Assembly (NCBI GenBank): GCA_964481345.1
Contig: CAYZTC010000001.1
Span: forward strand, 142,188-206,187
DNA length: 64,000 nt
Direction: 5' to 3'
DNA from: an uncultured Candidatus Saccharibacteria bacterium
GTDB lineage: Bacteria; Patescibacteriota; Dojkabacteria; SC72; JAFGCJ01
Under the pieces are notes generated by a model. It saw only the letters and a list, made by a program, of their open reading frames with translations, was not told the DNA's origin and made no database searches. A program made the translations under genes and the position numbers. Shown here in pieces: positions 11,638 through 43,044 of the stretch. Numbering within the stretch: position 1 is the stretch's first letter; every line of letters begins with the position of its first letter.

Positions 11638-12360
11638 GTGAACGTCTTCATTATTGAAGACTCCCCTACAATAACCCTCATTCTAGAAAGAACACTCAGT
11701 TCATACGGATACATTCCTCTTTGTCACACAAGTGACACCTTCTCAACAAAATTCCTTAAAGATAAACCTCATGAATTTTTTATTATGGATACAAATCTAT
11801 ACAAAGCAGACAGCCTAGAAATCTGTTCAAAAATAAAAGAAGTATGTCCATCTGCATACGTCATAGGTATAAATCATAGAGGAACATGGAAAGACAGAAT
11901 AGAATTTTTAAAAAGTGGTGCAGATGACTGTATTTCGTACCCTTTTCCACCAGAAGAAATACTTGTAAGAATCCAGGCCCTTCTAAGAAGACCCAAAAAA
12001 TATATCTCAAGTAACCTAAAATATGGGAAATTCTTGATTGACACATATAATCAAGAAGCCTTCTACAACAGTAGATTACTTAAACTTTCTAAAAAGGAAT
12101 ACCAAATACTTGAGTATTTTATTCGAAATAAAGAAAGGAAAGTCTCAAGATCTGAATTACTTGATCATGTATGGGACTACCGTAAATCAAGCAGCTCTAA
12201 TACAGTAGATGTTCATATCACAAAGCTTAGAAGGAAAATTACAAAAGCTAAAAACAAAAGATATCTCAACAAAGATAATTTTCAACAAAACTCTGAAATA
12301 CAAACGATATACGGAGTAGGATATCAACTTAAAGATAATTTCGAAGAAAAAGGAAGCTAA
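11638..12360 (+). CDS. OmpR/PhoB-family response regulator (receiver + winged-helix)
   Basis: 240 aa; receiver motifs (IMDTNL, KSGADDCISYPF) and C-terminal trans_reg_C-like region (ELLDHVWDY...VDVHITKLRRKI); GTG start. Confidence 0.75.
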   Translation: MNVFIIEDSPTITLILERTLSSYGYIPLCHTSDTFSTKFLKDKPHEFFIMDTNLYKADSLEICSKIKEVCPSAYVIGINHRGTWKDRIEFLKSGADDCISYPFPPEEILVRIQALLRRPKKYISSNLKYGKFLIDTYNQEAFYNSRLLKLSKKEYQILEYFIRNKERKVSRSELLDHVWDYRKSSSSNTVDVHITKLRRKITKAKNKRYLNKDNFQQNSEIQTIYGVGYQLKDNFEEKGS

Positions 12361-13499
12361 TCTATCCTCATAGGCATTATTATATGTAGGTAGTTTTCAT
12401 CCTTTTCTGACTTAAACACACCAGGTGCTGTAGAGTTACTACTCTCCATTATCATAGTCTCCCCCTCGATACAGGAAAGCATATCACTAAGAAACTTTGC
12501 ACTAAATCCAATCTCTAGCTTATCACCCTCCACTTTAGCCTTGAAACTACTCTCATTTTCACCCACCTCTACAAGTGCTGCCCCTACCTTCACTTCACCT
12601 TTTTTAGGGTCTATTTCTATTATTGCCTTATTTCCAATTACATTTCTTGCAAATATATTTACTATTCTCACAGCATTTCTAAACTCATCTGTGTCTACTT
12701 CTACCCTTGTCTGATACCCAGTAGGAATTATTTGCTTATACTCTGGAAACTGACCGTCTATCAATCTTGACGTAAGATCAACTTCCTTATATCTAAGTAT
12801 TACCTGATTTTTGCTTTTTAAAAGGTAAACCTCTACATAATCCTTCTTTTTTGAGTCTCCATCCTCATACAGATCACCTATTATTCTTGCTAACTCCTGC
12901 ATTGTTCTTGCTGGTATTAATAGATCCAAAGATTCTTTAGTACTCTTCTCAAGCTCTATAAACTGTCTTGCAAGCCTAAACCCATCCACAGATATCAGGG
13001 TTAACTTTTTTCCATCCACCTCTACTTTTATACCTGTAAGTACTGGTCTAGACTCATCAGATGCCGAAGCTATTGCTACTCTATTTATAGCATTTTGTAT
13101 TTCCTCTGGTTTAACCGAAAAAAGAAGATTCCCGTCCTCTATACTTGGAACTTTTGGAAAATCATCGGCTGGTAAAGTGTTAAATTGAGCAGAATTGTTC
13201 TTCGTTGTTACCTTTAGAATCTGCTTATCTAAAGTAAGATCAACTTTTTCCGAAGGCAGTGAGTTTACAAATTCGGAAAAAGTTCTCGCTGGAATTGTTA
13301 TTATTCCTTCTTCTTTTGCTTCAGCACCAATCCATGTATGTACCCCCATCTCTAGATCAGTTGCTGTTAGCTTAAGCTTGCTACCCTCCGCCTCTACTAA
13401 TACATTAGCAAGGATTGGAAGTCCCGGTTTACTACTTACTAATCTTCCCACTATACCTAACTGCTTAGCTAAACTAATTTGATTACAACCAATCTTCAT
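12357..13499 (-). CDS. dnaN: DNA polymerase III beta sliding clamp
   Basis: 380 aa, typical DnaN N-terminus MKIGCNQISLAKQLGIVGRL..PILANVLVEA. Confidence 0.9.
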   Translation of the reverse strand: MKIGCNQISLAKQLGIVGRLVSSKPGLPILANVLVEAEGSKLKLTATDLEMGVHTWIGAEAKEEGIITIPARTFSEFVNSLPSEKVDLTLDKQILKVTTKNNSAQFNTLPADDFPKVPSIEDGNLLFSVKPEEIQNAINRVAIASASDESRPVLTGIKVEVDGKKLTLISVDGFRLARQFIELEKSTKESLDLLIPARTMQELARIIGDLYEDGDSKKKDYVEVYLLKSKNQVILRYKEVDLTSRLIDGQFPEYKQIIPTGYQTRVEVDTDEFRNAVRIVNIFARNVIGNKAIIEIDPKKGEVKVGAALVEVGENESSFKAKVEGDKLEIGFSAKFLSDMLSCIEGETMIMESSNSTAPGVFKSEKDENYLHIIMPMRID

Positions 13500-15532: not shown

Positions 15533-16972
15533 TCATAGCTCTATATTGTGAATTTTTTCCTTGAGTGTTTCATCCTCCTCCATCTTCTCTTCTATCCTAT
15601 CTACGGCATTGAGAACAGTCGTATGGTCATTCCTATTTAGTTCTCTTGCAATTCTCTCAAGTGGAAGGTCAAGCTCCTTTCTCATAAGGTACATGCATAT
15701 ATGTCTAGGTACCACTATCTCCGATGTTCGTCTTTTACCCCTAATATCTTTTACTGAAATCCCAAACTCTTTACTTACATTTCTGATGATATCTCTTGGA
15801 GATGTTTTCTTCCTTTTACTAGCAGAGTCTATATGAAGCATCATTGCAACTTCCTCTTGTGAGGGAATTGTTCCTCCTATTTTTACATGAGTACCTACCT
15901 TAATTAACGCACCTTCAAGTTCTCGGATATTGTCATCAAACTCTTTAGCCACAAAGTTAAGGATGTAGTCTGGAAGGAAGATTCCTTTATCATCAGCCTT
16001 TTGCTTTATTATTGCTATTCTAGTCTCATAGTCTGGTGCAGAAATATCGGCTACCATTCCACCTTCAAACCTAGACTTCAGTCGATCAGTTAGTTTTTCA
16101 ATTTCTCTTGGTGGGCAGTCCGAGGCTAGTACGATCTGTTTACCAGTTTGGTATAGGGTGTTGAAAGTGTGAAAAATCTCAGTCTGTGCCATGTCCCAGT
16201 TTGATATAAACTGGATGTCGTCTATCATTAATATATCAAGCTTTCTGTACATGTTCCTGAATTCGTTAGTATTGCCCTTTCTTATAGAATTAACCATCTC
16301 GTTTAAGAAAGATTCGCTTGGACAATAAAGAACTTTTTTGTTTGGATCTCTGTTTATTACTCTGTTTGCAATAGCATGCATTAGGTGAGTTTTTCCTAAT
16401 CCAACTCCTCCATAAATAAAAAGTGGATTGTATGATCTTCCAGGGTTGTCAGAGACAGCATCGGCTGCAGCATGGGCAAGTTTGTTGAAAGACCCAACGA
16501 CGAAGGTTTCAAATGTATATAGTGGGCTTACGTTCCCCTTTTCTCTTGCATCATCTACGAGATTTTGGTGAGTATATGGAATGTTAAAAATGGGTGCCTC
16601 GTTTGGGGAAATTGTTGTGCCATCATATCTGCTTTTTACTTTTTCTTCGCCACCATCTATTTCAAAGACAATGTCGATGTCTCTACCGGTAATTTCCTCC
16701 AGTAAGTTTTTGATAAGTTTGTGGTGATTTGAGTCAAGCCATTCTCTTGCAAAATTAGAGGGGCATGATATTGTAGCAATTCCATTTTCAACTTGTGCTA
16801 GTTCAGTATTTTTAAACCAAGCTGAAAAGTTCTGCGAGGTTATCTTCATCTGAATTTTTTCAAGTGCAATCTTCCAAACCTCGTTTGTATCAATAACCTT
16901 TTCCTTAGATCCTTTAGTGTTTGGAGTCTTCAATTTTTTTACAATAGTCTTTAGTCGGGGCAGATGGGACAA
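15533..16972 (-). CDS. dnaA: Chromosomal replication initiator DnaA
   Basis: 479 aa; Walker A GGVGLGKTHLMHAIAN, C-terminal DNA-binding domain. Confidence 0.95.
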   Translation of the reverse strand: MSHLPRLKTIVKKLKTPNTKGSKEKVIDTNEVWKIALEKIQMKITSQNFSAWFKNTELAQVENGIATISCPSNFAREWLDSNHHKLIKNLLEEITGRDIDIVFEIDGGEEKVKSRYDGTTISPNEAPIFNIPYTHQNLVDDAREKGNVSPLYTFETFVVGSFNKLAHAAADAVSDNPGRSYNPLFIYGGVGLGKTHLMHAIANRVINRDPNKKVLYCPSESFLNEMVNSIRKGNTNEFRNMYRKLDILMIDDIQFISNWDMAQTEIFHTFNTLYQTGKQIVLASDCPPREIEKLTDRLKSRFEGGMVADISAPDYETRIAIIKQKADDKGIFLPDYILNFVAKEFDDNIRELEGALIKVGTHVKIGGTIPSQEEVAMMLHIDSASKRKKTSPRDIIRNVSKEFGISVKDIRGKRRTSEIVVPRHICMYLMRKELDLPLERIARELNRNDHTTVLNAVDRIEEKMEEDETLKEKIHNIEL

Positions 16973-25284: not shown

Positions 25285-25725
25285 ATGTCCATAGAACTAT
25301 TTCAACAGTATTGCAAACAAAATAAAATAGAGGTTGATGTTCTTAATGAGGGGTCTACAACTCATACAGCGAGGGACTCGGCGAAAACTCACGGTATTGA
25401 CTTGAACAGGATTGTTAAATCATTATTGATCAAAATTGGAGGTGAGTTTTGTGTTTTTCTTGTGCCAGGTAACAAAAGGTTAGACTTTAAATATCTTGAG
25501 GAACGTTTTGGTACGGAGGATATTAGAATGGCAACTGCAGACGAGGTGAAGGAGATGACCGGTTATTCTATCGGAGGTGTTCCACCTTTTGGGCATAAGA
25601 AAAAGTTGAAAACGCATATTGAAGATGGTTTTCCAGCCAGTAAGCAACTGTTAGCAGCAGCTGGAAGAGAAGATTCTGTGTTTTGGGTAGGTTTGGATAA
25701 GTTGAAAGAGATTGCCGCTGGCTAG
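25285..25725 (+). CDS. YbaK/ProX-type aminoacyl-tRNA deacylase (start may be 25249)
   Basis: MSIELFQQYC...GYSIGGVPPFGHKKK matches YbaK deacylase domain. Confidence 0.7.
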   Translation: MSIELFQQYCKQNKIEVDVLNEGSTTHTARDSAKTHGIDLNRIVKSLLIKIGGEFCVFLVPGNKRLDFKYLEERFGTEDIRMATADEVKEMTGYSIGGVPPFGHKKKLKTHIEDGFPASKQLLAAAGREDSVFWVGLDKLKEIAAG

Positions 25726-25760
25726 ACTCATAGTGTGTTTTCGTGAGATAATTCCATACG
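25721..25760. repeat. Repeat element A copy 1 (gctggctagactcatagtgtgttttcgtgagataattcc), promoter-like (TAGACT-N18-GATAAT) 25 bp upstream of gene
   Basis: Identical 40-mer recurs at 27022-27060, a degenerate third copy ~27905-27945. Confidence 0.7.
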
Positions 25761-25783: not shown

Positions 25784-26785
25784 ATGTCTCCGCAAGAAGA
25801 ATTAGATGATTATATTGCTGGCAGTGAGGATCGTGATCCATTACTAACCTTTCTGCCCCTGGGACTACCTGATATGTTCGGGCAAGAAATCATCGCTAGT
25901 CCCGATAATAAGAAATTTGAGATTATTATTCACAATGATCCTGGAGGCCACAGACCAATTGATATTTTCGAAAAGGTTGTCGGTTTCACATATGAAGTGT
26001 TGATTAATGCAAAGCGAGTTAGTGTGTGTGGGTCCTCTTTCTGCAAAGAAGACGGTAAGGAAAATATTGGAAAGATAGATAAGTTTAACGAAGACCTTGT
26101 TCTTTTCCTCCAAAAAGGGGTAATGTCGAAGTTTTTATATGATGCATTTCCCGATAATGGACTCAGAAGATCCTTTTTGGGTCGTATTATTCTTGGAGCA
26201 CCGCGGGAAATATCTATTGACTGGTATGAAAATTCACAGGAAGAGGCAGAAAAAAGAAAAAGGGAAGAAGAAGCTTTTGGATCGTTAGTAGAAATGGATC
26301 CATTAGTCGTTATGAGAATGGTGGGGGATTTCTGCTCTGAGATACCTTTAAGATATAAACAAATAATACGGAAGGAAGGGAAGAATACAGCAAATGGATC
26401 TGGACGTGTTTCTATTGCAATAACCAAGAAGGAATTTACGCTCATAAAGTATTTTGCACATAAGTTCGAACAATTCAGCCGTTTGGATGGCGTTGGTAAA
26501 CATCGCTCATTTAAGCCAGGAGGTAAATATCGTTCAAAAAAGCCAAGAGGAAGAAGAGGGAGGGAAATTATGGACCTAGAACAAAACGAGATAAAAAACA
26601 TGCTCGAATCGAATAAAGAAGCTTTATCTCCAAGGGAGAGAATCATACTTGAGTTAAGGTTTGGTCTTCAGGGTAGAGAACCAAGAACTCTTGAGGAAGT
26701 GGGAGAAAAGTTTAACTTAACAAAACAAAGAATTAAACAAATTGAAGCAAAAGCATTAGAAAAGTTAGAAGACGCATCTACTTAA
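25784..26785 (+). CDS. Sigma-70 region 4 domain protein (stand-alone r4 HTH fused to novel N-terminal region)
   Basis: C-terminus [48 protein letters not shown] is ~75% identical to region 4 of RpoD encoded at 41101-42243; no regions 1.2-3 present. Confidence 0.6.
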
Positions 26786-26917: not shown

Positions 26918-27021
26918 ATAAGAAAAGAAGAAAAGGTCAGTGAGATTTTTTGGGTTTTGTCCCCATATAGGTTTTTTAGCCAAACCACGAATTCCTTTAT
27001 CCCACTGACCATTTTGTTATC
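26918..27021. repeat. Repeat element B copy 1 (~100 bp nested inverted-repeat element) directly fused to element A copy 2
   Basis: gaaaagaagaaaaggtcagtgag...cccactgaccattttgttatcgctggctag; outer arms ggtcagtgag/cccactgacc; second copy at 27805-27915. Confidence 0.7.
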
Positions 27022-27060
27022 GCTGGCTAGACTCATAGTGTGTTTTCGTGAGATAATTCC
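27022..27060. repeat. Repeat element A copy 2
   Basis: Exact 39/40 match to 25721-25760; 30 bp upstream of ORF 27092. Confidence 0.7.
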
Positions 27061-27091: not shown

Positions 27092-27781
27092 ATGAACTCC
27101 ATAAATGGAGGGACGAATGCTAGGAAACAAGGTTCAAGTCCTACTGAAAGAGGGGATGCAATTACTCCCATAGTCATTAATTTTTCGATGAAAGAAATTG
27201 AAAAGTGCATCAATAGTGCGGAGAAAAATCCATATGGTAGTTATTTAATAGATGTTTCTGGTGGCAATGATAGTGATGGATATGTAGACTCTTTTTGGGG
27301 TGCGGAGAACCATCTAAAAGTTTGTTTGGGGCAATATTTAGGCAGTAGAGAAAAGATCCAAAAATTGGCTGAAAGTTATGATGGTATTGAAATTTTTTAT
27401 AGGCATGTATCAGAATTTTTAGAAAATGGATTAATAAGTACTGGGTTCTACAAAAAGTTTGGAAGAGATTATTTGTTTTTGAAGTACTATGCCATGTATC
27501 TTATATTAAATAGAGATAGAGTCCTTATCCGTTACGGAGAGGAGAAGAAAAAGTCTCGGGCGCAAATCAGGCTATATGAATTGGAGAGAAAACATGGAAA
27601 CTTAGTAAATTTGGACAGCATTGACAAAATGCATCAATCTAAGGCTGCGATAGGGAGAGTCAGGCGGAAACTTCAAAGAGATCGTAAAATACAGATTAGT
27701 GCTTGTGATTACAAGGTTTTGAGTTTGTATATAGATTTGATAAAGCCATTTTTTCGTATGAGCCTTGACGACAAAGAGTAG
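27092..27781 (+). CDS. Hypothetical protein
   Basis: 229 aa ORF flanked by repeat A (upstream) and repeat B (downstream). Confidence 0.5.
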   Translation: MNSINGGTNARKQGSSPTERGDAITPIVINFSMKEIEKCINSAEKNPYGSYLIDVSGGNDSDGYVDSFWGAENHLKVCLGQYLGSREKIQKLAESYDGIEIFYRHVSEFLENGLISTGFYKKFGRDYLFLKYYAMYLILNRDRVLIRYGEEKKKSRAQIRLYELERKHGNLVNLDSIDKMHQSKAAIGRVRRKLQRDRKIQISACDYKVLSLYIDLIKPFFRMSLDDKE

Positions 27782-27804: not shown

Positions 27805-27915
27805 TAAGAAAAGAAGAAAAGGTCAGTGAGATTTTTGGGTTTGGTTCCCGTACGGGCTTGCTAACCAAACCACAAATCCCTTTATCCCACCGACCTTCTG
27901 TTATCGCTAGCTAGA
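27805..27915. repeat. Repeat element B copy 2 (inner palindrome cccgtacggg; inner arms gggtttggtt/aaccaaaccac)
   Basis: ~85% identical to 26918-27021 with indel in apical region. Confidence 0.7.
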
Positions 27916-28181: not shown

Positions 28182-29207
28182 ATGGGAATACCTCTGAAAA
28201 TCGCAAAAATTGTAGGAAAAGTTCTACTTGGGTTTTTAGGTTTGATAGTGATCTTCTGGATTGTTTTATCAATACTGTCCCCTTTTGGAATTCCAGAAGG
28301 GAATAGTGTTGACTATATGAAAGGGGTATGGATGCCTGATCCGCGAGAGCATTTTTCTGCCTATTTCAATATGGAACGTTTGAGGGAAGATGGAGTGAAC
28401 ACAATTTCCCTTGGTCCCCTTGCCTACAATAAATTACTAGCGACTATTCACAGACCGTTCATTTCAGCGATAGTAAAAAAAGCACATAAAAATGGTATGG
28501 CGGTTCATATTGCCCCAAATAGCTGGGGTCCAGGATTTAGTCATGAAGATCCACACATTGAAATGGAAGATTTGCTTACAGAACAAGCTATTTACTGGGC
28601 AGAATTTGCTGAACAGTACAATGTGGAATATTTTTCTCCTCAGAATGAACATGATGTTGTACTTGGATGTGGGTTTGGTGCAAAGTGGGCCCAGGATATT
28701 TTGGATGATATTCGAGAGGTATATTCAGGTGAGATAATACTTAAAATTGGATCGGTATACTGTGAAGCTGATCCAGATTATCAAATAGAAATAAAGTCTT
28801 TAGGAGATGAAAATAGCTTCTGGCCAGGCAAATTTTCGGATGCTACGGGATACGACTATTTCATGATAGATATATTGCCATTTAGTGATGATGTGGATAG
28901 GGATTTGTTTTTGGAAGATCTTGAAAATATATTGGGGTATGCAAGACAGGAGGTTGAAAGGAAAGAATTGAAGGGGTTTATGATAGGTGAATTTGGATAT
29001 CTGACCGAAAAGCCTGCGATGGTTGCAAGTATTATGCCTGGACCAGAATTAACAGAAGAGGAACAGGCTCAAGGAATTGAGGACTATTTGGAGGTTGCAA
29101 TGCCAATGGTTGATGGAATAGTATATTGCGGCTGGACTCTAGATGGATATGGATTTAAGGACAAACTTGCCGAAGATGTAATAAAAGAAAAATTTAGTTC
29201 ATACTGA
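28182..29207 (+). CDS. Membrane-anchored putative glycoside hydrolase (TIM-barrel, GH5/GH113-like)
   Basis: 341 aa; N-terminal TM, then motifs NTISLGP, ...FSPQNEHD suggestive of clan GH-A catalytic NE[PH] motif; weak. Confidence 0.4.
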   Translation: MGIPLKIAKIVGKVLLGFLGLIVIFWIVLSILSPFGIPEGNSVDYMKGVWMPDPREHFSAYFNMERLREDGVNTISLGPLAYNKLLATIHRPFISAIVKKAHKNGMAVHIAPNSWGPGFSHEDPHIEMEDLLTEQAIYWAEFAEQYNVEYFSPQNEHDVVLGCGFGAKWAQDILDDIREVYSGEIILKIGSVYCEADPDYQIEIKSLGDENSFWPGKFSDATGYDYFMIDILPFSDDVDRDLFLEDLENILGYARQEVERKELKGFMIGEFGYLTEKPAMVASIMPGPELTEEEQAQGIEDYLEVAMPMVDGIVYCGWTLDGYGFKDKLAEDVIKEKFSSY

Positions 29208-32473: not shown

Positions 32474-32558
32474 TATGGAGAATGATACTATAGGGCTGGG
32501 ATAAGTTCAAGCTGGAATATTGGTTTGTTCTGTTCCAGAAGACTTTAGTGGAAAAGTA

Positions 32559-32616
32559 GTACAGGCAGCAAAAAAGGGCAATTCCAACAGATGTTCATGT
32601 TGTGAACCGCCCTTTT
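32559..32616. terminator. Cassette terminator T_A: bidirectional hairpin (aaaaagggc...gccctttttc) with A- and T-runs on both sides
   Basis: Stem aaaaagggc / gccctttttc enclosing caattccaacagatgttcatgttgtgaacc; paralogous to hairpins at 37647-37694 and 38445-38496. Confidence 0.6.
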
Positions 32617-32634
32617 TCTCTTTTGCTCATTTCT

Positions 32635-33144
32635 TTACTCGTCTAACCAACGTTGAACAACTTTCCTTGTCTCTAAAACAAGTGCTTCAACGTTTTGTCC
32701 ATCAAGGACCTTCAATACCGTGATGCTTACGGAAAGTTTCGTAGAAACTTTCCAATGTTCAGTCGTGAAAACATAGTATCTCGGATTGTCGTCATGTATG
32801 ATAATTTTTGAAAACATGATTGGCTTTCCAATATACTCTAACGTTGGGTCGTTGTCCGAGAGACGTGGGTCACTATATCTGTGTCGGGGTTGTATAGGTA
32901 TTTCAGTTAACCCATGCGATAAACCTGCTTCGCGAATACCTTTGTCTTCAACCACATATATTCTGTCGACCATCCTCGTTCCGTTAATGAGTTCCCTCAC
33001 GGTTGGAATTCGTAAGAGCCAGTCAATCTGTAAGGTCTCAACAGAAATTGTCGAAACCTTCTTGTAGTAATGTTCATCTCCCAGAGCTAGTAAGCCCAAG
33101 AACACGAAATCATCTACATAACCTAACCATTTTTTCTTTCTCAT
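32635..33144 (-). CDS. Cassette ORF A, hypothetical protein (~169 aa; true start ATG at 33142-33144 with SD GGAGG, not the GTG at 33231)
   Basis: ORF track 32635-33231; upstream 29 codons lie in the conserved non-coding leader (equivalent region in copy C carries a stop). Confidence 0.5.
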   Translation of the reverse strand: MRKKKWLGYVDDFVFLGLLALGDEHYYKKVSTISVETLQIDWLLRIPTVRELINGTRMVDRIYVVEDKGIREAGLSHGLTEIPIQPRHRYSDPRLSDNDPTLEYIGKPIMFSKIIIHDDNPRYYVFTTEHWKVSTKLSVSITVLKVLDGQNVEALVLETRKVVQRWLDE

Positions 33145-33149
33145 CGGAA

Positions 33150-33344
33150 CCTCCGATATGAGTGTTATCCTTGGATTTTCCACGTCACCGACGGGAAGGA
33201 GTAACACTACCTTCCTATGTTCCAAAAACACAAAAAGGTAATGTCACTTACAAGGATTTTTGTATAAGAGCAAAAGAGAAATTGATGTAATTGGGGCAGC
33301 CATCAATCTGGGGTGATTGTACTATGGGATGGATATTTATTCAA
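33150..33344 (-). promoter_or_regulatory. Cassette leader L_A: promoter TTGAAT-N17-TACAAT (-35 at 33339-33344, -10 at 33316-33321) plus conserved ~165-nt structured 5' leader
   Basis: ~85% identical to 38984-39191 and (first ~70 nt) 38190-38258; begins with palindrome ATTGATGG-N12-CATCAAT. Confidence 0.6.
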
Positions 33345-33579
33345 TATGTAAGATGCGTATCTTTTTATCTCTCTTCCAACTTTTTATCTGAGCTTCCCTT
33401 TTAAGAGCCTCTGACCTAGTATTGAATTTTTCTGTATAAACAAGTTTGAATGGGAGTTTTGAAGCAACGTATTTGGATCCTTTCTTTTGCTTGTGTTCGG
33501 ATAGTCTTCTTTTAAGATTTGTTGTAATACCGGTGTAAAGGGAGTTATCGTTGCATTTTAGTATATAAAGTGTGTACAT
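33337..33579 (-). CDS. GIY-YIG nuclease family protein (stand-alone, UPF0213/YhbQ-like)
   Basis: 80 aa MYTLYILKCNDNSLYTGITTNLKRRLSEHK... classic GIY-YIG core. Confidence 0.75.
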   Translation of the reverse strand: MYTLYILKCNDNSLYTGITTNLKRRLSEHKQKKGSKYVASKLPFKLVYTEKFNTRSEALKREAQIKSWKRDKKIRILHIE

Positions 33580-33773
33580 ACTGTGATTATAGAATCAGAG
33601 GGTGTGAACACAAGGGTTTCTGGTTTTCCTTCCTTTGGCCCTTCGACCAGACTCATCGCAGGTGAGTTCAGTATAGAAAAAATCAACACCGATATAACGG
33701 TATTTTAGAATAATTGTTGAAAAGCTGATTCAAAATGTGAAATAATGGTTGGTAATCTCATCAACCATTTTAG

Positions 33774-35114
33774 ATGTCTAAATATGATGTAATTGTTGTT
33801 GGTGCGGGACCTGCTGGAATATTTTCCTGTATTGAACTTATCAAGTTATCCTCCAAGAAGAATATTCTCCTTTTGGAGCTTGGGGATGGGATAGAAAAGA
33901 GGAAAGAATCTGACGTTATGACAGGTTTTGGTGGGGCTGGCACATTTTCTGATGGTAAGCTTCACTACACTCCCAAACTCTCTCATGAAAGAGCTCTGCA
34001 TCTGTTAGATATTGAAAAATATCAGGAAATACTGGATCAGGTTGATAAGACATTTAAGAAGTTTGGAGTTGAGGCGAAGTATTATCCTAAAAACGTTAAA
34101 GAGGTAGAAGCTCTTGTAGAAGATGCAATTCTTCATGACATCGATCTTGTAGTCAGGAAAACTCAGCATGTGGGTACAGACAAATTAATGCCGGTAATGA
34201 AGAAGATGCAGAAGTATTTAGAGACGTCAGGAGTCAAACTGAAGACCCATGTCAATGTGAAAGATATTATTAGAAATAGAGGGAAAGCCATTGGTGTAAA
34301 AGATAGCAATGGGAAAGAATATTTCTCAGAAAAAGTATTACTTTGTCCAGGCAGATATGGAGCAAAGTGGCTACAAAAGCTTGGAGATAAGCAAGGAATA
34401 GAATATAGGTATGAGAAGGTAGAAGTTGGTGTAAGAGTAGAGTTTCCAGCAGTAGTGATGAAAAAGTATGCTGATGCTCTATATGAAGTTGTGTTTCAGA
34501 TGCGAACACCTACATTTGATGATTTAGTAAGAACCTTCTGTTCCTGTCCGAATGGGTATGTGTCTGTGGAGAACTATGGAGGATATATATGTGTGAACGG
34601 ATGCTCGAATTCTGACCATAAGTCGAAGAATTCAAACTTTGCCCTTCTTTGTAAAGTTGGCTTGACGGAGCCAGTGGAAAACACGATTGAATATGCAAAA
34701 TCTATTGCGGAAGTTGCATCTACAATTGGTGGTGGAAAACCAATTATTCAAAGACTTGCAGATCTTCGAGCTGGAAGAAGAAGTACCTGGTCAAGTATTC
34801 TCAAATCTCTGGTATCTCCAAGTTTAAGGGAAGTTACTCCCGGTGATATTACAATGGCACTTCCGTATCGTATAGTTACTGGAATTATTGAGGGTCTAGA
34901 AAGGCTTGATGAGGTAATGCCTGGTTTAAATTCTGGATCTACCCTACTCTATGCACCAGAGGTTAAGCTTCGATCATCTAAAGTGAAGGTCACTTCAGAT
35001 ATGCAAACTACAGTAAGAAATCTCTTCGTTGCAGGTGATGCGTCTGGTGTGTCTGGATCAGTCACTGGTGCTGCTGTTACCGGAATTATGGCAGCAAGAG
35101 GTATTTCAAAATAA
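33774..35114 (+). CDS. FAD-dependent dehydrogenase (COG2509-like, Rossmann GxGxxG N-terminus)
   Basis: 446 aa; MSKYDVIVVGAGPAGIFSCIEL dinucleotide-binding motif; C-terminal GDASG. Confidence 0.7.
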   Translation: MSKYDVIVVGAGPAGIFSCIELIKLSSKKNILLLELGDGIEKRKESDVMTGFGGAGTFSDGKLHYTPKLSHERALHLLDIEKYQEILDQVDKTFKKFGVEAKYYPKNVKEVEALVEDAILHDIDLVVRKTQHVGTDKLMPVMKKMQKYLETSGVKLKTHVNVKDIIRNRGKAIGVKDSNGKEYFSEKVLLCPGRYGAKWLQKLGDKQGIEYRYEKVEVGVRVEFPAVVMKKYADALYEVVFQMRTPTFDDLVRTFCSCPNGYVSVENYGGYICVNGCSNSDHKSKNSNFALLCKVGLTEPVENTIEYAKSIAEVASTIGGGKPIIQRLADLRAGRRSTWSSILKSLVSPSLREVTPGDITMALPYRIVTGIIEGLERLDEVMPGLNSGSTLLYAPEVKLRSSKVKVTSDMQTTVRNLFVAGDASGVSGSVTGAAVTGIMAARGISK

Positions 35115-35130
35115 TTTATTTATTAATAAA

Positions 35131-36303
35131 ATGAGAACTGTGGGTACTATTGTGCGTGGCATTCGAACTCCTATTATTAGACATGGTGATGATTTGGAGC
35201 AAATAGTCATGGATTCGATAGAAAGGGCTGCTAAAAATGAAAATTTTAAGTTAAATGATAGGGATGTTATAGGTATTACAGAAGCGGTTGTAAGCATTAC
35301 ACAGGGTAATTTTGTTACGCTAGACCAATTGTCAAAAGAGTTTAAAAAGGTCTTTCCTTCAAAAGTAGGGGTAGTGTTTCCGATATTAAGCAGGAATAGA
35401 TTTTCACTCATACTTAAGGCTCTGGCAGATGTGTCGAAAGAGGTTCATGTATTATTAAGTTATCCTTCTGATGAAGTTGGTAATCAGCTAGTTAACTCGG
35501 AAGTTATGGATGCAAAAGGAGTGGACCCCTTCAAGGATTCGTTTGAAGAGCGTGAGTTTAGGGAAATATTTGGAGATAAGTTGGCTCATCGGTTTACAGG
35601 TGTAGACTATATTGAGGCGTATAAAAAGTTGGGAGATGGAAATGTAACGATACATTTTTCAAATGATCCGACATCAATACTTAAGTATACGAAAAATGTG
35701 CTCGTTTCAGATATTCACACAAGGTTTAAAACGAAAAAGATTATAAAAAAGGCGGGAGGTAAGCTAATTATTGGCTTGGATGAGATCTGTAATAAGAAAA
35801 TTAGGAAGCATGGATATAACATTGAGTATGGTTTGCTAGGATCGAATAAGGTTGCAGAGGATAGATTGAAACTTTTTCCTAGAGATTGTGATATTTTTGT
35901 TGATAAAATAAAAGATAGAATTAAGAAACGGTATAAGAAAGAGGTAGAGGTTTTAGTTTATGGTGATGGTGCATTCAAAGATCCTGTTGGAAAAATCTGG
36001 GAGCTTGCAGATCCAGTGGTGTGCCCAGGGTTCACCGAGAAACTTATTGGAACGCCCAAGGAGTTGAAATTAAAGTACATTTCTGAGAACTGGGACTCAC
36101 AGGGTGATCTTGGTGATTATGTGAAGAGTATGATTAGAATGAAAAATACTAAGGATTATGATGTAGAAAAATCTTTAGGTACTACACCAAGACAGCTAAC
36201 AGATCTGCTCGGAAGCTTATGTGATTTAACAAGTGGAAGTGGGGATAAGGGAACGCCCGTTGTGTTGGTACAAGGGTACTTTGATGACTACACTGTAGAG
36301 TAG
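35131..36303 (+). CDS. CofE-like (F420-0:gamma-glutamyl ligase family) protein; start taken at MRTVG (ORF track starts 35029)
   Basis: N-terminus MRTVGTIVRGIRTPIIRHGDDLEQIV resembles CofE/FbiB N-terminal pattern; weak, motif-based only. Confidence 0.4.
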   Translation: MRTVGTIVRGIRTPIIRHGDDLEQIVMDSIERAAKNENFKLNDRDVIGITEAVVSITQGNFVTLDQLSKEFKKVFPSKVGVVFPILSRNRFSLILKALADVSKEVHVLLSYPSDEVGNQLVNSEVMDAKGVDPFKDSFEEREFREIFGDKLAHRFTGVDYIEAYKKLGDGNVTIHFSNDPTSILKYTKNVLVSDIHTRFKTKKIIKKAGGKLIIGLDEICNKKIRKHGYNIEYGLLGSNKVAEDRLKLFPRDCDIFVDKIKDRIKKRYKKEVEVLVYGDGAFKDPVGKIWELADPVVCPGFTEKLIGTPKELKLKYISENWDSQGDLGDYVKSMIRMKNTKDYDVEKSLGTTPRQLTDLLGSLCDLTSGSGDKGTPVVLVQGYFDDYTVE

Positions 36304-36342
36304 TAGGTGGAGTTGAAGTGCTTGTACTGAGCTTGCCGAAGT

Positions 36343-36375
36343 GAAGAGAGGCAATGGGACTGGTTAGAACTTTGA
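36343..36375. repeat. Partial copy of conserved terminator-flank motif (gaggcaatgggacNggttNgaact)
   Basis: Matches 37603-37631 and 38408-38436; similar to tmRNA 3' end (gagacggtgggaattgaac). Confidence 0.45.
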
Positions 36376-36382
36376 GACTGTC

Positions 36383-37456
36383 CTATTTATTATCTGAAGT
36401 GGTGTCAAAAAGTAGTCGATTAAATAGTACTGTTACGAAAGAGGCATTAAAAAATATTCCCAACATAGCGGCAAATTGATACAAGATACTGTAGAAAGAC
36501 GGCAATTTATCTAGCTTTTCTATATTATTTCCAAGTGTTAGCATGGCTCCGGAAGTAACAAGTATAGACGCACACAAATCCTTTAACCCTGTGAAAAATA
36601 TCAAAGATAAAATTAATAATGCAATTAGATACATTCCGAGAACCCTGAAGGGTTTTTGTCCATATCCTGTTAGGCAATTGAAAACCAAAACTCTGAATAA
36701 TTTCTCGCTAAAATTATTTATGTTATATTTGGTGAAGTTATTGTTCTCTTCTATTAGGTATTGTCTGGCTTTATCTGTTACCTCTCCTGCTAGATACGAT
36801 TTCTTCAAACCCTTATAAAATAAGTATCTTTCTTTGTTTTCGGTGCCATCTCCATATCGACCTTCGAGCTTTATGTCTTTAAAAATAGTGTTTGCGTTAA
36901 AAGTACAGTTATTGAAAGAATGAGGATAGAATGAGCAATTTTCGAAAACTACATTGAAAAAATATGATTTTGTGAATTGACTAAATTGAGTGAAATCGCA
37001 ATTGATAAATTTTACGTTTCTAAACGTTGAGTAACTTGAATTGAAGAAATGAAAGTCACATTTTTTAAAGGTGGTTTGAGCAGTGTAAATATTGTCTGCC
37101 GAACAAGAGAGAAATGTGGCGCCATTAAACGTCGAAAATTCAAATTTGGCATAGTCGAATCTTATACCTTTGAAATTATCATCTTCGGGGAAATCGAGAT
37201 GTTCTCTTAACAAATATATCCCCTTTAAATCTCTTGGGGAGTCGAGTATGGGGAGATTTCCTTGGGCGTATTCGTTCGAGAGAAAGTTCTCCCCTGCACC
37301 TCCTTTAATCAGTTTGAAAATTCTCTTTTTTTGCTTTATGTTTTCTGCAGCATGCCAACGAGTTTGCCATCTTATGACGTCAGCCTCTTCATCTTTTTTT
37401 CTGGGTACTATTATTGTCACGGTCAGATAATAACAGAAGCAATACCCTATTGTCAT
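36383..37456 (-). CDS. Pentapeptide-repeat protein with C-terminal 2-TM pore-like (ion-channel-like) membrane domain
   Basis: 357 aa; long run of A(D/N)LxF/C-type pentapeptide repeats (FSTFNGATFLSCSADNIYT...NCTFNANTIF) then hydrophobic helices with TLGNN loop. Confidence 0.6.
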   Translation of the reverse strand: MTIGYCFCYYLTVTIIVPRKKDEEADVIRWQTRWHAAENIKQKKRIFKLIKGGAGENFLSNEYAQGNLPILDSPRDLKGIYLLREHLDFPEDDNFKGIRFDYAKFEFSTFNGATFLSCSADNIYTAQTTFKKCDFHFFNSSYSTFRNVKFINCDFTQFSQFTKSYFFNVVFENCSFYPHSFNNCTFNANTIFKDIKLEGRYGDGTENKERYLFYKGLKKSYLAGEVTDKARQYLIEENNNFTKYNINNFSEKLFRVLVFNCLTGYGQKPFRVLGMYLIALLILSLIFFTGLKDLCASILVTSGAMLTLGNNIEKLDKLPSFYSILYQFAAMLGIFFNASFVTVLFNRLLFDTTSDNK

Positions 37457-37602
37457 AATTATGATTTATATCAGAAGAGAAAATTCTTCAATTTTATATT
37501 TGAACGAAATTTGGAGTATGACAAAAACAAGGGATATCGAACCCATGAATATTCTGTTCCAATAAGACTTTTCGATGAAATAGATAACACAGACTCTCAT
37601 CT

Positions 37603-37631
37603 GGTAGAGGCAATGGGACGGGTTGGAACTT
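37603..37631. repeat. Conserved terminator-flank motif copy (gaggcaatgggacgggttggaacttgagg)
   Basis: Direct repeat of 38408-38436 and 36343-36375. Confidence 0.5.
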
Positions 37632-37646
37632 GAGGTTTAGGCAACA

Positions 37647-37694
37647 AAAAAGCGGCTTGTTCGTTTTTACGGAACTCGCCGCGATTTTGCTTTT
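37647..37694. terminator. Cassette terminator T_B (aaaaagcggc...gccgcgatttt hairpin, bidirectional)
   Basis: Hairpin immediately 3' of ORF B stop (37696); flanked by A-run and T-run. Confidence 0.55.
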
Positions 37695-37695
37695 G

Positions 37696-38070
37696 CTAAA
37701 TAATTTTGAGTCGAATATCTGTTACTGGATATCCGTAATATTCTCCTCTTATTTTTTCTCGGAACACAAAAGGTTGAATGTGTACTGGGGTCAGGAGTAT
37801 TTTTCTATTAGGGGAATGTTCAAAACAGACAATTCTCACAAAGGTGTCATCAGAAAGGAATCTTCTTATTGGTTTGTAGTATGTCCATTTACCGTTACGA
37901 TTCATGTGTCTGAAGGATACTACATTATCCAATCGTTCTAATCCTCTGTAGATTTCTACCAAAGACCCCTTCTTTAGTAAGAATTCGTTTTGTCCTTTTC
38001 TATGTTGACGACGGGCTATTTTTTTAGCTCGAGGTCTTAATAAGTAAGTCCACAACTCTTTAATATTCAT
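37696..38070 (-). CDS. Cassette ORF B, small basic hypothetical protein (~124 aa; start ATG 38068-38070 with SD GGAGAA)
   Basis: ORF track gives 37696-38220 but N-terminal 50 codons overlap conserved leader; internal Met MNIKELW has SD. Confidence 0.45.
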   Translation of the reverse strand: MNIKELWTYLLRPRAKKIARRQHRKGQNEFLLKKGSLVEIYRGLERLDNVVSFRHMNRNGKWTYYKPIRRFLSDDTFVRIVCFEHSPNRKILLTPVHIQPFVFREKIRGEYYGYPVTDIRLKII

Positions 38071-38258
38071 TTTGCTTCTCCGTTTATTTTCTTTTTCAAA
38101 AGATGATAAGTTCAGTTCCCCCGTTCTATCCACGAGGTGTGAACAGGATGGGAGAACCAAATAAATGAGAATATTGTATAAGAGCAAAAGCAAAATTGAT
38201 GTAATCGGGGTAGCCATCAATGTAGATGGATTGTACTATGGGATAATAGAAATATCAA
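38071..38258 (-). promoter_or_regulatory. Cassette leader L_B: promoter TTGATA-N17-TACAAT (-35 38253-38258, -10 38230-38235) plus leader sharing first ~70 nt with L_A/L_C
   Basis: Sequence alignment of three copies; palindrome ATTGATGG-N12-CATCAAT retained. Confidence 0.55.
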
Positions 38259-38260
38259 GT

Positions 38261-38293
38261 TGGCAATATTGTTTGTGTTGTTGTATTGCCAAT
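38261..38293. other. Perfect 9-bp inverted repeat TTGGCAATA-N15-TATTGCCAA just upstream of the L_B -35 box
   Basis: ttggcaatattgtttgtgttgttgtattgccaa. Confidence 0.4.
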
Positions 38294-38407
38294 ATGGAGC
38301 ATAGTAGATAAAGTCGGAAATTATTTCAGAATCAACAATTCCCCTATCCTACTAGTGTAAACTGATGTTTGTTGAAGTATGGAGTGTAGATAAGTGAAAA
38401 ATGAGGA

Positions 38408-38436
38408 GAGACAACGGGACAGGTTGGAACTTGGAG
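38408..38436. repeat. Conserved terminator-flank motif copy (gagacaacgggacaggttggaacttggag)
   Basis: Direct repeat, see 37603-37631. Confidence 0.5.
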
Positions 38437-38444
38437 TACAGCCA

Positions 38445-38496
38445 GCAAAAAAGGGGGTCATAACAGATGTTCATGTCATGAACACCCCTTTTTTCT
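38445..38496. terminator. Cassette terminator T_C (aaaaagggggt...acccctttttt hairpin enclosing palindrome gttcatgtcatgaac)
   Basis: Strong GC stem with flanking A6 and T6 runs; 5 bp from ORF C stop. Confidence 0.6.
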
Positions 38497-38500
38497 TTTG

Positions 38501-38983
38501 CTACTTATTTTTCAGTACAATAACATTGTACCGTGGAATGATATTCAAAATACCCGTCTCTTCTTGGTAAGTTGTTTGGACATAGATATATCTAACAACC
38601 TTACGGAAGTGAAATTGGGGTAAATTTTGGATTGGCTCCCCGTGTACAATAATTCTTTTCCGAATAATTGGGAATTTCTTAAGGAGACCACTCAAAATAT
38701 TGCTCACTGCTCGTTGTTCTTTTTGAGCTGGTATCTTCAGTATATCCCATTCCTCCTTCGGATTTGTACTTTCTCTAACGGAATATATATTTTCCGTAGT
38801 GAAGATGCCAGTATCTGCATTGTATTCATCAACAAGGGTTCTATTGAACCATTCCTGATTCATGATACCAACCGTTATTGATTCTCCTTTTTGTAAAAAA
38901 ACTAGAGCACCTCTTCGTATCTTCAGAATCCTCCTTAATTCGGAGAACTCTTTTAACAATCCGGAAAGCTTTTGTTTATTCAT
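38501..38983 (-). CDS. Cassette ORF C, hypothetical protein (160 aa)
   Basis: ATG with SD GGGAGG 5 nt upstream; sits between L_C and T_C. Confidence 0.5.
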   Translation of the reverse strand: MNKQKLSGLLKEFSELRRILKIRRGALVFLQKGESITVGIMNQEWFNRTLVDEYNADTGIFTTENIYSVRESTNPKEEWDILKIPAQKEQRAVSNILSGLLKKFPIIRKRIIVHGEPIQNLPQFHFRKVVRYIYVQTTYQEETGILNIIPRYNVIVLKNK

Positions 38984-39191
38984 GGAAACCTCCCGTCTCC
39001 CTTTCTAAGTGTTATCCTTTGATTTTCCACATCACGTGGAAGGAGTAACACTACCTTTATATGTTCCTAGGAACACATGAAGGTAATGTCACACATCAAG
39101 GATATTTGTATAAGAGCAAAAGAGAATATTGATGGAATTGGGACAGCCATCAATCTGGGTGGATTATACTATGGGGTGATAGAAATGTCAA
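38984..39191 (-). promoter_or_regulatory. Cassette leader L_C: consensus sigma70 promoter TTGACA-N17-TATAAT (-35 39186-39191, -10 39163-39168) and ~170-nt conserved structured leader, 36 bp downstream of tmRNA 3' end
   Basis: Perfect consensus hexamers with 17-bp spacer; leader begins with perfect palindrome ATTGATGG-N11-CCATCAAT. Confidence 0.65.
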
Positions 39192-39227
39192 TGTAGTGAA
39201 GTCGGGATTATGCTGTTATATAAGCAC

Positions 39228-39638
39228 TGGTGGAGACGGTGGGAATTGAACCCACGTCCAAAAGAATCGTCAAATGCAATGATACAAGCTTAGTCAGTTT
39301 GACTAATCAAGGATTTAAAAACTGACAAAATAATCCCTGAAGAGGTGATTTTAAAAATTCTCAGGTTGGGCTCACCTGGTTACCCTTCCTGTATATCCCG
39401 AAAATGAACGAGCTTTAGATACCTCATCGGGAAGAAGTGACCCAAGCTCACAGTGGAATTACCCTACTGACATGTTCATGTTGAGACCAGCAAAAGCTGA
39501 GTTAACACCTGCTGCAAATTTCTTTGCTGCTAGTTGAACACGGTTTTTAAGTGAATCTGCACTTATTTTTTGTTTTTAAGAGCGATTACTCTGCTTGGTG
39601 CATAGGACTTTAGCTTTTGTCGAAGCCTTGTCGTCCCC
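39228..39638 (-). ncRNA. ssrA: tmRNA (ssrA), one-piece, ~411 nt
   Basis: 5' GGGGACGACAAGGCTTCGAC... pairs with 3' ...GGGTTCAATTCCCACCGTCTCCACCA (tRNA-Ala-like acceptor with G3:U70, T-arm, encoded CCA); TATAAT boxes just upstream at 39651-39666. Confidence 0.8.
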
Positions 39639-41104: not shown

Positions 41105-42243
41105 TCAATATAATCCTTGAGCTGTTTTTCAGAGGAAAATGTCTTTAGCTTTTTCAGTGCCTTTGCTTCAATCTGTCGGATTCTTTCTCTTGTTACGCCA
41201 AACTCTCTTCCCACTTCTTCAAGGGTTCTCGTGACTCCATCCTGAAGACCAAACCTTAACTCAAGTACCCTTCTTTCCCGGTCCTGGAGAGAGTTTAAGA
41301 TATCTCTCATTTGGCTTTGAAGAAATGCGTTTGTGGCAAGATCTTCTGGCGAAAGAGTTTTTTCGTCAGGGATTATGTCTTGAAGTTGGCTATCCTGCTC
41401 TTTTCCGATGGGAGTAGAAAGAGACTTAGGATGCTGTTGAATTTTGAGAATATTATTTACCTTATCCACCTCTAGTTCCATCACCTTTCCTATCTCTTCT
41501 GGGGTGGGTTTTCTTCCGAGTTCTGCTGAAAGCTGAGCTGAGACCTTACTCAGTTTATTGATTGTTTCATGCATATGTACTGGTATTCTGATGGTTCTTG
41601 CCTGGTCAGCAATAGATCTTGTAATTGCCTGTCTTATCCACCAGGTAGCGTATGTTGAAAACTTAAATCCCCTTTTATAATCAAACTTTTCAACAGCCCT
41701 CATTAGTCCAATATTACCCTCCTGGATGAGATCTAGAAGATGTAATCCCCTGTTTGCATACTTCTTTGCTATGCTAACAACAAGTCTCAGGTTTGCAGTC
41801 ACGAGAAGCTGCTTTGCCTCCTCCTCCTTCTTTTCGACTCTTTTTGCCAGAGTAACCTCTTCCTCTTTAGTGAGAAGTGGGGTCTTTCCGATCTCTTGAA
41901 GATATGATCTAATAGCGTCATTTGAGATATTTGACTGGATAGATTTAAGTATCTTTATCTTCTTCTCCAATGTCATCTCTTCCTCTTCTTCCTCAAGCTT
42001 CTCCTCTGGCACATCAAGTACTTCGATACCGTTGTATTGGAGGGTGATAAATATTTCATCTAGTGCATCTAGATGGTTTTCTATGTGTGGAATTTCTTTT
42101 AGTATGTCCTCCTGTGTTAAAAAACCCTGCTCTTTTCCCTGCTTTACTAACAGTTTCATAACCTTTTCAATTTTTGCTTTTCTTGAGCTCTTGGGTTTAG
42201 TTTTTGTTTTTTTAGTTCTTTTAGTTTTTTTCTTACCAGCCAT
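41101..42243 (-). CDS. rpoD: RNA polymerase sigma factor RpoD (sigma-70) with basic N-terminal tail
   Basis: 380 aa; regions 1.2, 2 ([12 protein letters not shown]), 3 and 4 ([12 protein letters not shown]...[13 protein letters not shown]) all present. Confidence 0.9.
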
Positions 42244-42699: not shown

Positions 42700-43044
42700 A
42701 TGAAAAAAATTGATAAGAATAATCAAAATATTGTAAATAGTGAAACCTGTGGTGAGCTATTGGAAGTATTGAATTTGAAGGGTGTACCAGTAAGTGTAAC
42801 TCAAGCTGTAAACCTCAGACCTACAAAACCTCATTATCATAAAGTTGGTACAGAAATATTTTGGGTAAGAAAAGGTGAGATTACAGTGAAGGTAGATGAA
42901 AGTGAACCAGTAAAAATTTGCTCAGGTGAAGTCCTCGTAATTTCTCCTAACGAGGTTCATGAAGTTGTTGAGACATCGGATGATAATGAGGTTATTGTGA
43001 TTAATAATCCCCGTTGGGAAAAGGGGGATGAATATCAAAGTTGA
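42700..43044 (+). CDS. Cupin-2 domain protein
   Basis: 114 aa; HYHKVGTEIFWV...EVHEV metal-binding cupin motifs. Confidence 0.65.
   Translation: MKKIDKNNQNIVNSETCGELLEVLNLKGVPVSVTQAVNLRPTKPHYHKVGTEIFWVRKGEITVKVDESEPVKICSGEVLVISPNEVHEVVETSDDNEVIVINNPRWEKGDEYQS

Follow-up and report, generated by a model that had tools for sequence, protein, structure and literature searches.

Three small orphan genes within a common promoter-leader-terminator shell near the tmRNA gene of an uncultured Dojkabacteria bacterium

How small genes with no recognisable kinship may come to stand in one and the same regulatory setting is the question raised by a locus beside the transfer-messenger RNA (tmRNA) gene of an uncultured Candidatus Dojkabacteria bacterium (WS6, Patescibacteria/candidate phyla radiation, CPR). 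The window, as the whole analysed stretch is called here, comprises 64,000 nucleotides (nt) of contig CAYZTC010000001.1 (assembly GCA_964481345.1, positions 142,188 to 206,187), and inside 6.7 kb of this one genome it carries three minus-strand units, the cassettes C (39191-38407), B (38258-37552) and A (33336-32528), each with a putative promoter, a leader, one small open reading frame (ORF) and a terminator. The explanation preferred here, with confidence a little better than even, is that these are three self-contained expression units, in which a propagated regulatory shell encloses unrelated, lineage-restricted small genes.

The existence of such promoter-leader-ORF-terminator units had been claimed in the original prediction from the letters of the DNA, and is borne out by the statistics of the repeats, which are significant, occur in three copies each and are absent from shuffled sequences. 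Upstream of the ORFs, cassettes A (33161-33331) and C (39008-39178) are 85.6% identical over 174 nt (E about 1e-48), B (38174-38258) and C 83.7% over 86 nt, and B and A 87.3% over 71 nt. The diagnostic sub-motifs of this block are each found exactly three times in the 64 kb and not once in the shuffles. With a covariance model built on the 76-nt core, the three copies reach 102-107 bits (B 103), against 17 bits or less for everything else. The conserved leader of about 70-170 nt that had been described holds in full for A and C, but in B the homology is limited to the first ~86 nt, with the promoter, the first hairpin and a pyrimidine tract, after which B possesses a long hairpin of its own.

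The enclosed ORFs have the predicted lengths and Shine-Dalgarno (SD) sequences, the latter situated 5 nt before the ATG in all three: ORF A of 169 amino acids (aa; 32635-33144, minus strand) with GGAGG at 33150-33154, ORF B of 124 aa (37696-38070, minus strand) with GGAGAA at 38076-38081, and ORF C of 160 aa (38501-38983, minus strand) with GGGAGG at 38989-38994. Along the units A and C the identity amounts to 80-93% up to the ATG, falls to 30-47% in the coding sequence (CDS) and is again 80% right after the stop, so that the earlier statement that the flanks are far better conserved than the ORFs is justified; the background is reached about five codons into the ORF and left at the stop codon, the only exception being one 30-nt stretch at 67% (KIIIHDD vs RIIVHGE).

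A comparable picture might be left by an ordinary paralogous family, in which a gene with its untranslated regions (UTRs) was duplicated twice and the CDSs diverged beyond recognition under strong diversifying selection, while the flanks were held by regulatory constraint or gene conversion. This explanation is unlikely. On its side are the collinearity and similar size of the units, a residue of alignable sequence at both ends of the coding part, with ~5 codons (M-x-K-x-K) at the start and a few at the end of B and C, the internal 30-nt stretch of the A/C alignment, and the strict-global score of ORFs A and C (z = 4.3). However, BLASTP reveals no similarity among the three ORFs (E 0.09-0.95 on short segments), as their mutual unrelatedness in the original prediction had implied, and the semi-global alignment of A and C loses its signal, from z = 3.9 to z = 0.8, on trimming of the 8 N-terminal residues; therefore, the ORFs have no more coding sequence in common than a few initial codons, and these are part of the conserved flank. 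A CDS identity at background next to non-coding loops and spacers at ~85% is, moreover, hard to reconcile with divergence from a common gene, unless nearly every leader position is constrained.

The proteins themselves have hardly any known relatives. ORFs B and C are orphans that match only themselves among 5.8 billion clustered proteins, and ORF A is effectively an orphan, with an exhaustive HMMER search over 1.84 billion representatives yielding itself and two weak matches, the stronger of which (P0017) is inflated by eight near-identical tandem repeats, while neither has an informative Pfam domain. No match in Pfam, PHROG or PADLOC was obtained for A, B or C, and the single-sequence AlphaFold2 models (predicted local distance difference test, pLDDT, of 42 for A and 37 for C) were too poor for fold comparison. 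Judged by codon usage, the annotated frame of the cassette ORFs outscores the other five, with scores of about 0.0-0.06 vs 0.26 +/- 0.045 in core genes; low scores in the best frame fit young or fast-turnover genes, and it is plausible from these figures that A, B and C are real genes of this kind.

The 5' part of the shell opens with a near-consensus sigma70 promoter, in agreement with the earlier description: TTGACA-N17-TATAAT in cassette C (39163-39191, minus strand; 12/12 consensus positions), TTGATA-N17-TACAAT in B (38230-38258, minus strand; 10/12) and TTGAAT-N17-TACAAT in A (33316-33344, minus strand; 9/12). The -35 element of A is made of the last codons and the stop (ATT GAA TAA) of the adjoining GIY-YIG gene, so the copied unit begins there between -35 and -10. 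The motif CCATAGTAYAAT was considered as a general promoter consensus of the lineage and rejected, as it is present essentially in the cassettes and at two other sites only. Immediately past the -10 follows hairpin 1, a weak stem-loop of 7-8 bp with a U-rich tail, which is predicted as the helix ATTGATGG-N11-CCATCAAT in C (39128-39154, minus strand) and recognised by the covariance model in B (38195-38221, minus strand) and A (33281-33307, minus strand). Its form is ATTGATG(G)-N11-13-(C)CATCAAT, with invariant arms and a loop variable at three positions, and it may act either in the mRNA, as a stem-loop at the 5' terminus, or in the DNA, as an operator. The next element is a pyrimidine tract of 20 nt, TCTCTTTTGCTCTTATACAA in C (39106-39125), with its counterparts in B (38174-38193) and A (33260-33279), all on the minus strand, of which the window has three copies only and none would be expected by chance; in the minimum free energy (MFE) folds of B and C the tract pairs with a purine tract or with the SD, its partner in B being GGAGAAGCAAAAUG.

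Downstream of the tract the leaders fold into a long hairpin 2, of ~21 bp in C (39045-39092, minus strand) and of 23 bp with several G-U pairs in A (33200-33248, minus strand, followed by UCCUUCC), while in B a hairpin of another sequence occupies the analogous position (38114-38161, minus strand; MFE fold, z = -5.0). In the leaders of A and C, hairpin 2 is followed by CUCCUUCC, a short hairpin and then the SD; after hairpin 2 of C, CUCCUUCC is a possible anti-SD, and in the A/C consensus fold a CUCCU segment pairs with the SD of A. The leader folds of A, B and C have z of about -5 vs shuffles. Owing to G-U pairs in the stems, the sense strand of leaders and stems exceeds the antisense in stability by 7-16 kcal/mol; this holds for hairpin 2 of C and is pronounced in that of A (-28.3 kcal/mol sense vs -12.5 antisense). 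Such a strand bias points to a structure at the RNA level, with the same orientation as the ORFs. The pairing of hairpin 2 is kept between A and C through one compensatory and one one-sided change.

The leaders do not look coding, in line with the non-coding flanks of the original prediction. The possibility of a leader peptide was raised by a conserved ATG in hairpin 1 and rejected: in copy C an indel of 1 nt breaks the frame, most substitutions in this upstream ORF are non-synonymous, and an SD in front of it is absent.

The conservation of the leader might alternatively signify a regulon, with hairpin 1 as a palindromic operator (8-N11-8) that overlaps the start site and binds a shared repressor, or with the leader as a new ligand- or protein-binding RNA whose copies stay alike through their function and not through recent copying. 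The invariant arms and variable loop of hairpin 1, its site right after the -10, which is typical of operators, and the strong structure of the leaders accord with this idea, which is nevertheless improbable: an identity of 85% over 174 nt including spacers, plus a terminator, is more than an operator or aptamer needs, a regulator gene is not adjacent, and the related loci fetched yielded no homologue, although an RNA class with a function should have persisted in relatives. Nor was any Rfam 15 family found on the leaders or terminators; the search, run permissively on 31-41 kb and 25-31 kb and at gathering thresholds on all of the window, returned only tmRNA and tRNAs and nothing at E <= 1 over the leaders. 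The expectation of a leader family beyond the locus was likewise disappointed in limited searches. Thus worded, the negative has the following basis: blastn (word size 7) and the covariance model, applied to the 64-kb window and the related Dojkabacteria loci fetched rather than to the 228-kb contig and the others of this genome, detected only the three known copies; a scan of viral contigs for the hairpin 1 pattern gave 0 matches, and a distant search in GenBank phages gave none. The pattern ATCAAN{4,9}TTTTGCTCTTATACAA had 4 matches in metagenome contigs, all in unrelated AT-rich DNA, which is a weak negative, the collection being without the contigs of the source strain.

The 3' part of the shell consists of an A-tract/GC-stem/T-tract element, at 38447-38496 in C, 37645-37692 in B and 32568-32620 in A (all minus strand), and all three are bidirectional intrinsic terminators of textbook type. 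The conserved GC stem reported earlier is found in A (32558-32627) and C (38435-38502), which are 82.9% identical over 70 nt, but not in B, whose stem GCGGC...GCCGC differs, although the flanks are shared, and the homology downstream is mosaic: B (37606-37655) and C (38407-38456) are 80% identical over 50 nt, in which the 27-nt motif CAAGTTCCAACCNGTCCCRTTGYCTCT follows the terminators of C (38407-38433, minus strand) and B (37606-37632, minus strand). Its third copy, from a total of three in the window and zero in the shuffles, is located just 3' of the pentapeptide-repeat-like ORF (36347-36373, minus strand), and it is missing after cassette A. Further downstream, a motif of 19-20 nt, AAAGTCTT-N-TGGAACAGAA after B (37552-37571, minus strand), is common to A only (two copies, zero in shuffles); after A, it is represented by AAAGTCTTCTGGAACAGAA (32528-32546, minus strand), which is taken as the end of the unit. 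Each pair of units is linked by a different 3' element: the terminator sequence connects A with C, the 27-nt motif B with C, and the most distal motif A with B. A mosaic of this kind is expected from recombination among copies.

Two resemblances between these 3' elements and the tmRNA were considered. The 27-nt motif as a degenerate tmRNA 3' end, that is, as an att site, was rejected by self-blastn and mismatch searches, which show no similarity. The terminator loops of A and C (32591-32610 and 38467-38486) share the same-sense CAACATGAACAT with the end of the tag frame of the tmRNA (39472-39491), with 12 nt exact in A, and this likeness may be due to chance.

The neighbourhood of the cassettes shows what kind of DNA they inhabit. 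The tmRNA gene (39228-39638, minus strand; ARAGORN, and Rfam RF00023 at 121 bits) is flanked by a PilN-like gene on one side and by cassette C on the other, with 36 nt from its 3' CCA to the start of the -35 of C. Beyond cassettes C and B there follow a weakly recognised pentapeptide-repeat-like ORF (36383-37456, minus strand), a CofE-like gene (35131-36303) and a gene of a flavin adenine dinucleotide (FAD)-dependent protein (33774-35114), the last two on the plus strand and hence opposite to ORFs A, B and C, then a GIY-YIG gene of 80 aa (33337-33579, minus strand; Pfam E = 3e-22), which abuts cassette A, and, beyond ORF A, a 382-aa ORF. Cassette A is 4.2 kb away from B, with core genes between them, and there is no single contiguous array. 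The window also contains the chromosomal marker genes dnaA, dnaN, rpmH, rnpA, rpoD, ftsK and the tmRNA gene, and, as it carries dnaA, dnaN and rpmH, it is chromosomal DNA; its GC content across the region is flat (36-39%), equal to that of the chromosome and without compositional anomaly. The RpoD of the window is 77-90% identical to that of four metagenome-assembled genomes, two of them of Dojkabacteria, with which the gene order rpoD-pilO-pilN-tmRNA is common.

The FAD protein is a core protein of Patescibacteria (6560 matches at about 64% identity), and two sibling contigs, L054 and L055, carry copies of it that are 86% and 82% identical. These contigs are 76-83% identical to the window in nucleotides and have the same local gene order, 295aa/GIY-YIG/FAD/CofE in L054 and 382aa/FAD in L055. 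In L054 the identity is 83% over a stretch that begins with the GIY-YIG gene, includes FAD and reaches into CofE, and it is 75% in the gene of 295 aa, whereas about 660 nt of different DNA replaces the 382-aa gene and cassette A, the homology ending at the GIY-YIG stop codon, which is the edge of the shell. In L055 the orthologue of the 382-aa gene lies 109 nt from FAD, and both the GIY-YIG gene and cassette A are missing. Cassette A is, therefore, a presence/absence polymorphism, missing in two siblings, and the GIY-YIG gene, present in L054 and missing in L055, is itself variable; more distant FAD contexts (L056, L057) were uninformative. Since the siblings keep FAD and CofE in place, these genes are not island cargo, and the notion of one tmRNA-adjacent island is not supported, given this core pair and the preserved local order. 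Of the hypervariable array that had been suggested, the presence/absence of cassette A survives, but the contiguity does not, A lying beyond core genes. As side observations on the same contigs, 1431-1589 of L054, in the slot of the 382-aa gene and cassette A, is 68.6% identical to the Cupin_2 gene of the window (42877-43035), which by its sequence points to another local duplication or rearrangement, and the CofE-like gene of a population variant (L002, JGI 3300028837) has a 199-bp deletion (35540-35738) that splits it into two ORFs.

The tmRNA gene is a classic integration site, and one rival explanation is a site-specific cassette system, either integron-like or as a serial island at the tmRNA 3' end, with the terminator hairpin or the 27-nt motif as the site and a recombinase elsewhere. 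The location next to the tmRNA speaks for it, as do the synteny with three more distant Dojkabacteria relatives (L008-L010), which holds to the tmRNA and breaks right after it, the 27-nt motif, with which C, B and the pentapeptide gene all end in succession, and duplications of the tmRNA 3' end in the relatives L007 and L009. The comparison of the tmRNA locus between relatives, which the original prediction had called for, thus confirmed a break of synteny after the tmRNA, and in L007, the closest species, no promoter of cassette C was found in the 268 nt after the tmRNA, which constitute the sibling data for the region of cassettes B and C; FAD and CofE are kept in place in the siblings. Yet probes of 25 and 15 nt from the tmRNA 3' end, each with <=3 mismatches, match only the tmRNA itself in the window, and no integrase or other recombinase domain is present in the recorded or scanned Pfam matches, which cover most genes at ~2-59 kb and not every ORF, in agreement with the earlier remark on a missing integrase. 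Every one of the units carries a promoter, which integron cassettes do not, the hairpins resemble plain intrinsic terminators, cassette A lacks the 27-nt motif and is separated by the core genes, and the GC content is uniform. A site-specific system is very doubtful, and the serial integration at the tmRNA that had been proposed is not upheld, with no second tmRNA 3' end in the window, no integrase and no compositional shift.

The tmRNA loci of the relatives deserve a description of their own. In L007 the last 18 nt of the tmRNA (AATTCCCACCGTCTCCAT; 3447-3464) are repeated 190 nt downstream (3637-3654), which looks, from the letters, like an att-type duplication around a tiny insert, and this insert had no match to an Rfam family, introns included. 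In L009 a perfect 61-nt tandem duplication (6171-6231 and 6266-6326, with a period of 95 nt) starts from the CCACCA end of the tmRNA, and the first part of the duplicated sequence is conserved after the tmRNA of L010. Small GIY-YIG genes of 80-84 aa directly follow the tmRNA in L009 (6400-6651) and L010 (15891-16145); the GIY-YIG protein of the window, whose gene is 5.6 kb from the tmRNA, is 34% identical to them.

Another origin that such a combination of strong promoters, terminators and orphan genes may suggest is a remnant of the early region of a phage or another mobile element beside the tmRNA. The architecture is as in the hyperplastic regions of T4-type phages (PMC2839356), the orphan genes have atypical codon usage, and an NT5C-type nucleotidase and a protein with sigma70 region 4 only are encoded nearby. 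On the other hand, PHROG gives no matches for the cassette ORFs and their neighbours, except weak ones for the pentapeptide and GIY-YIG proteins, the viral contigs and GenBank phages searched have no match, genes for structural proteins, replication and integrase are absent, the base composition is that of the chromosome, and core genes are interleaved; a phage remnant is, hence, a quite improbable source. In sum, neither serial integrase-mediated insertion at the tmRNA, nor an integron-like array, nor a prophage remnant is supported.

Among the known systems, the putative mobile promoters (PMPs) of Matus-Garcia, Nijveen and van Passel (2012) were defined as homologous upstream regions (>=80% over >=50 nt) in front of non-homologous CDSs of one genome, in families of 2 to 93 members, whose spread was proposed to proceed by duplication and recombination with no dedicated transposase (PMC3488235). 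The cassettes conform to this definition: all three pairwise upstream alignments exceed 50 nt at >=80% identity, the CDSs do not align by the BLASTP, nucleotide and trimmed-alignment results given above, and the upstream neighbours, namely tmRNA (C), ORF C (B) and GIY-YIG (A), are non-homologous, the family being a small one. The block described here differs in its greater length (174 nt), with a strongly folded 5' UTR included, in the co-conservation of the 3' terminator, so that the whole shell rather than the promoter alone is reused, and in its CPR host, which that survey could cover only poorly. The closest architectural analogue of the shell is the promoter-early stem-loop (PeSL) cassettes of T4-type phages described by Arbiol et al. 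(2010) and Comeau et al. (2014), compact composite motifs, around 50 per phage genome, that flank ORFans and mediate modular shuffling (PMC2839356, PMC4122927). Common to both are a near-consensus sigma70 promoter, a stem-loop terminator and an SD before small ORFans in variable regions. In the PeSLs, indels between close relatives are bounded by the elements, and homologous recombination between elements was proposed as the mechanism; for the cassettes, the absence of A in L054 and L055 is seen, with one boundary at the shell edge. However, the terminator and the next promoter are here ~190 nt apart, with a structured leader of 70-170 nt thereafter, and the three copies belong to a bacterial chromosome, ~20 kb from dnaA/dnaN, and not to a T4-like hyperplastic region. 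With this chromosomal setting, non-compact elements and a long structured leader, the shell is not a member of the PeSLs.

With integron cassettes, the units have in common variable ORFs of no assigned function, each ending in a hairpin-forming conserved element, and two of them in tandem; they differ by their own promoters, by 3' hairpins without the conserved GTTRRRY attC core, by their non-contiguous placement, and in that no IntI or attI was found in the recorded Pfam matches for most genes at ~2-59 kb and in local ORF scans. The tmRNA (ssrA)-targeted islands, whose variable content starts at the tmRNA 3' end, are similar inasmuch as the synteny with relatives breaks there, and dissimilar inasmuch as there is here no integrase next to the tmRNA, no duplicated tmRNA 3' segment and no compositional shift, and core genes lie inside the supposed island. 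Neisseria Correia/CREE and ERIC elements are repeated intergenic DNA that supplies promoter elements and RNA hairpins, possible targets of ribonuclease III (RNase III); they are mentioned in PMC3488235 as well. The units of the cassettes have no terminal inverted repeats or target-site duplications at their ends, in contrast to these elements, and enclose a whole gene.

Taken as a propagated regulatory shell, the common part of the cassettes comprises, on the 5' side, a sigma70-type promoter, a stem-loop 2-3 nt past the likely start, the 20-nt pyrimidine tract, the long hairpin, a possible anti-SD and a strong SD, and, on the 3' side, the terminator with short downstream motifs. It has probably spread by local duplication, followed by homologous recombination between the shell copies, as a result of which different CDSs would be enclosed, and a dedicated integrase would be unnecessary; the mosaic, the sharp boundaries and the cassette A indel fit such copying or recombination of a shell round unrelated CDSs. 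Each ORF would be transcribed alone from a strong promoter and insulated by the terminator, a strong one being situated ~190 nt upstream of the following promoter. The structured leader would act at the RNA level: the 5' stem-loop might make the transcript more stable or attenuate it, and access to the SD might be controlled by the long hairpin together with CUCCUUCC or the pyrimidine tract, possibly via RNase III cleavage. We infer the transcription of the cassettes, this RNA mechanism and the recombination route from the arrangement of the elements.

Several points weigh against the propagation of a shell and are to be set beside these arguments. There are only three copies, with none seen in the related loci fetched, and the word mobile relies on one case of presence/absence together with the mosaic. 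By sequence, the sibling comparison would be compatible with a gain in this lineage as well as with a loss in both siblings, and within the source strain the cassettes are 100% identical from contig to contig, so that ongoing shuffling was not observed. One double change in hairpin 2 leads to a C·A mismatch in copy C, and the covariation is minimal, with one compensatory pair from 2-3 sequences; the promoter, the start site and the RNA roles are predictions.

A bolder version would regard the shell as the substrate of a dedicated CPR gene-capture system, in which an enzyme yet to be named recognises the leader together with the terminator and 27-nt motif, moves the promoter-equipped cassettes and turns over orphan genes by the tmRNA. 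The small GIY-YIG nuclease that abuts cassette A and varies among the siblings would be a candidate for this enzyme, and the system, if true, would be in effect integron-like with self-expressed cassettes; its probability, however, is judged to be very slight.

Apart from the cassettes, the window includes a second pair of duplicated elements, about 5 kb from them and unrelated to the shell. An upstream element of 113 nt, 85.8% identical between its copies at 26919-27031 and 27805-27915 (plus strand), fronts two unrelated ORFs, 27092-27781 (229 aa) and 28182-29207 (341 aa), folds into a long irregular hairpin and has no match in Rfam, and a perfect 40-nt repeat (25716-25755 = 27021-27060) also occurs in the DNA upstream of the gene at 25784. 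These sequences suggest that the reuse of regulatory regions may recur in this orphan-rich stretch. The gene at 25784-26785 (plus strand) encodes a protein of 333 aa, whose only recognisable domain is sigma70 region 4, without region 2, and which is 54% identical in aa and 78.6% in nt to the same part of the resident rpoD (41141-41279); such a protein need not be a sigma factor and could nonetheless bind to the polymerase or to -35 elements. With dnaN at 12357-13499, dnaA at 15533-16972, and rpmH, rnpA and yidC beyond ~17.2 kb, the window itself includes the region of the replication origin, at a distance of about 16-22 kb from the cassettes.

The locus is a real but small, local case of regulatory-shell reuse. 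The reuse of promoters alone has already been documented in many bacteria, and that of a complete shell around orphan genes, well documented in T4-type phages, is extended here to the tiny chromosome of a Dojkabacteria bacterium from the CPR. The practical value is modest, as a natural set of strong promoter, UTR and terminator for CPR genetics and as a marker of a fast-turnover region near the tmRNA. The leader, strongly folded and with G-U pairs specific to one strand, is a candidate for a new cis-acting RNA element, with three copies in one genome, and the shell offers a possible route by which new or captured small genes may gain immediate, insulated expression.

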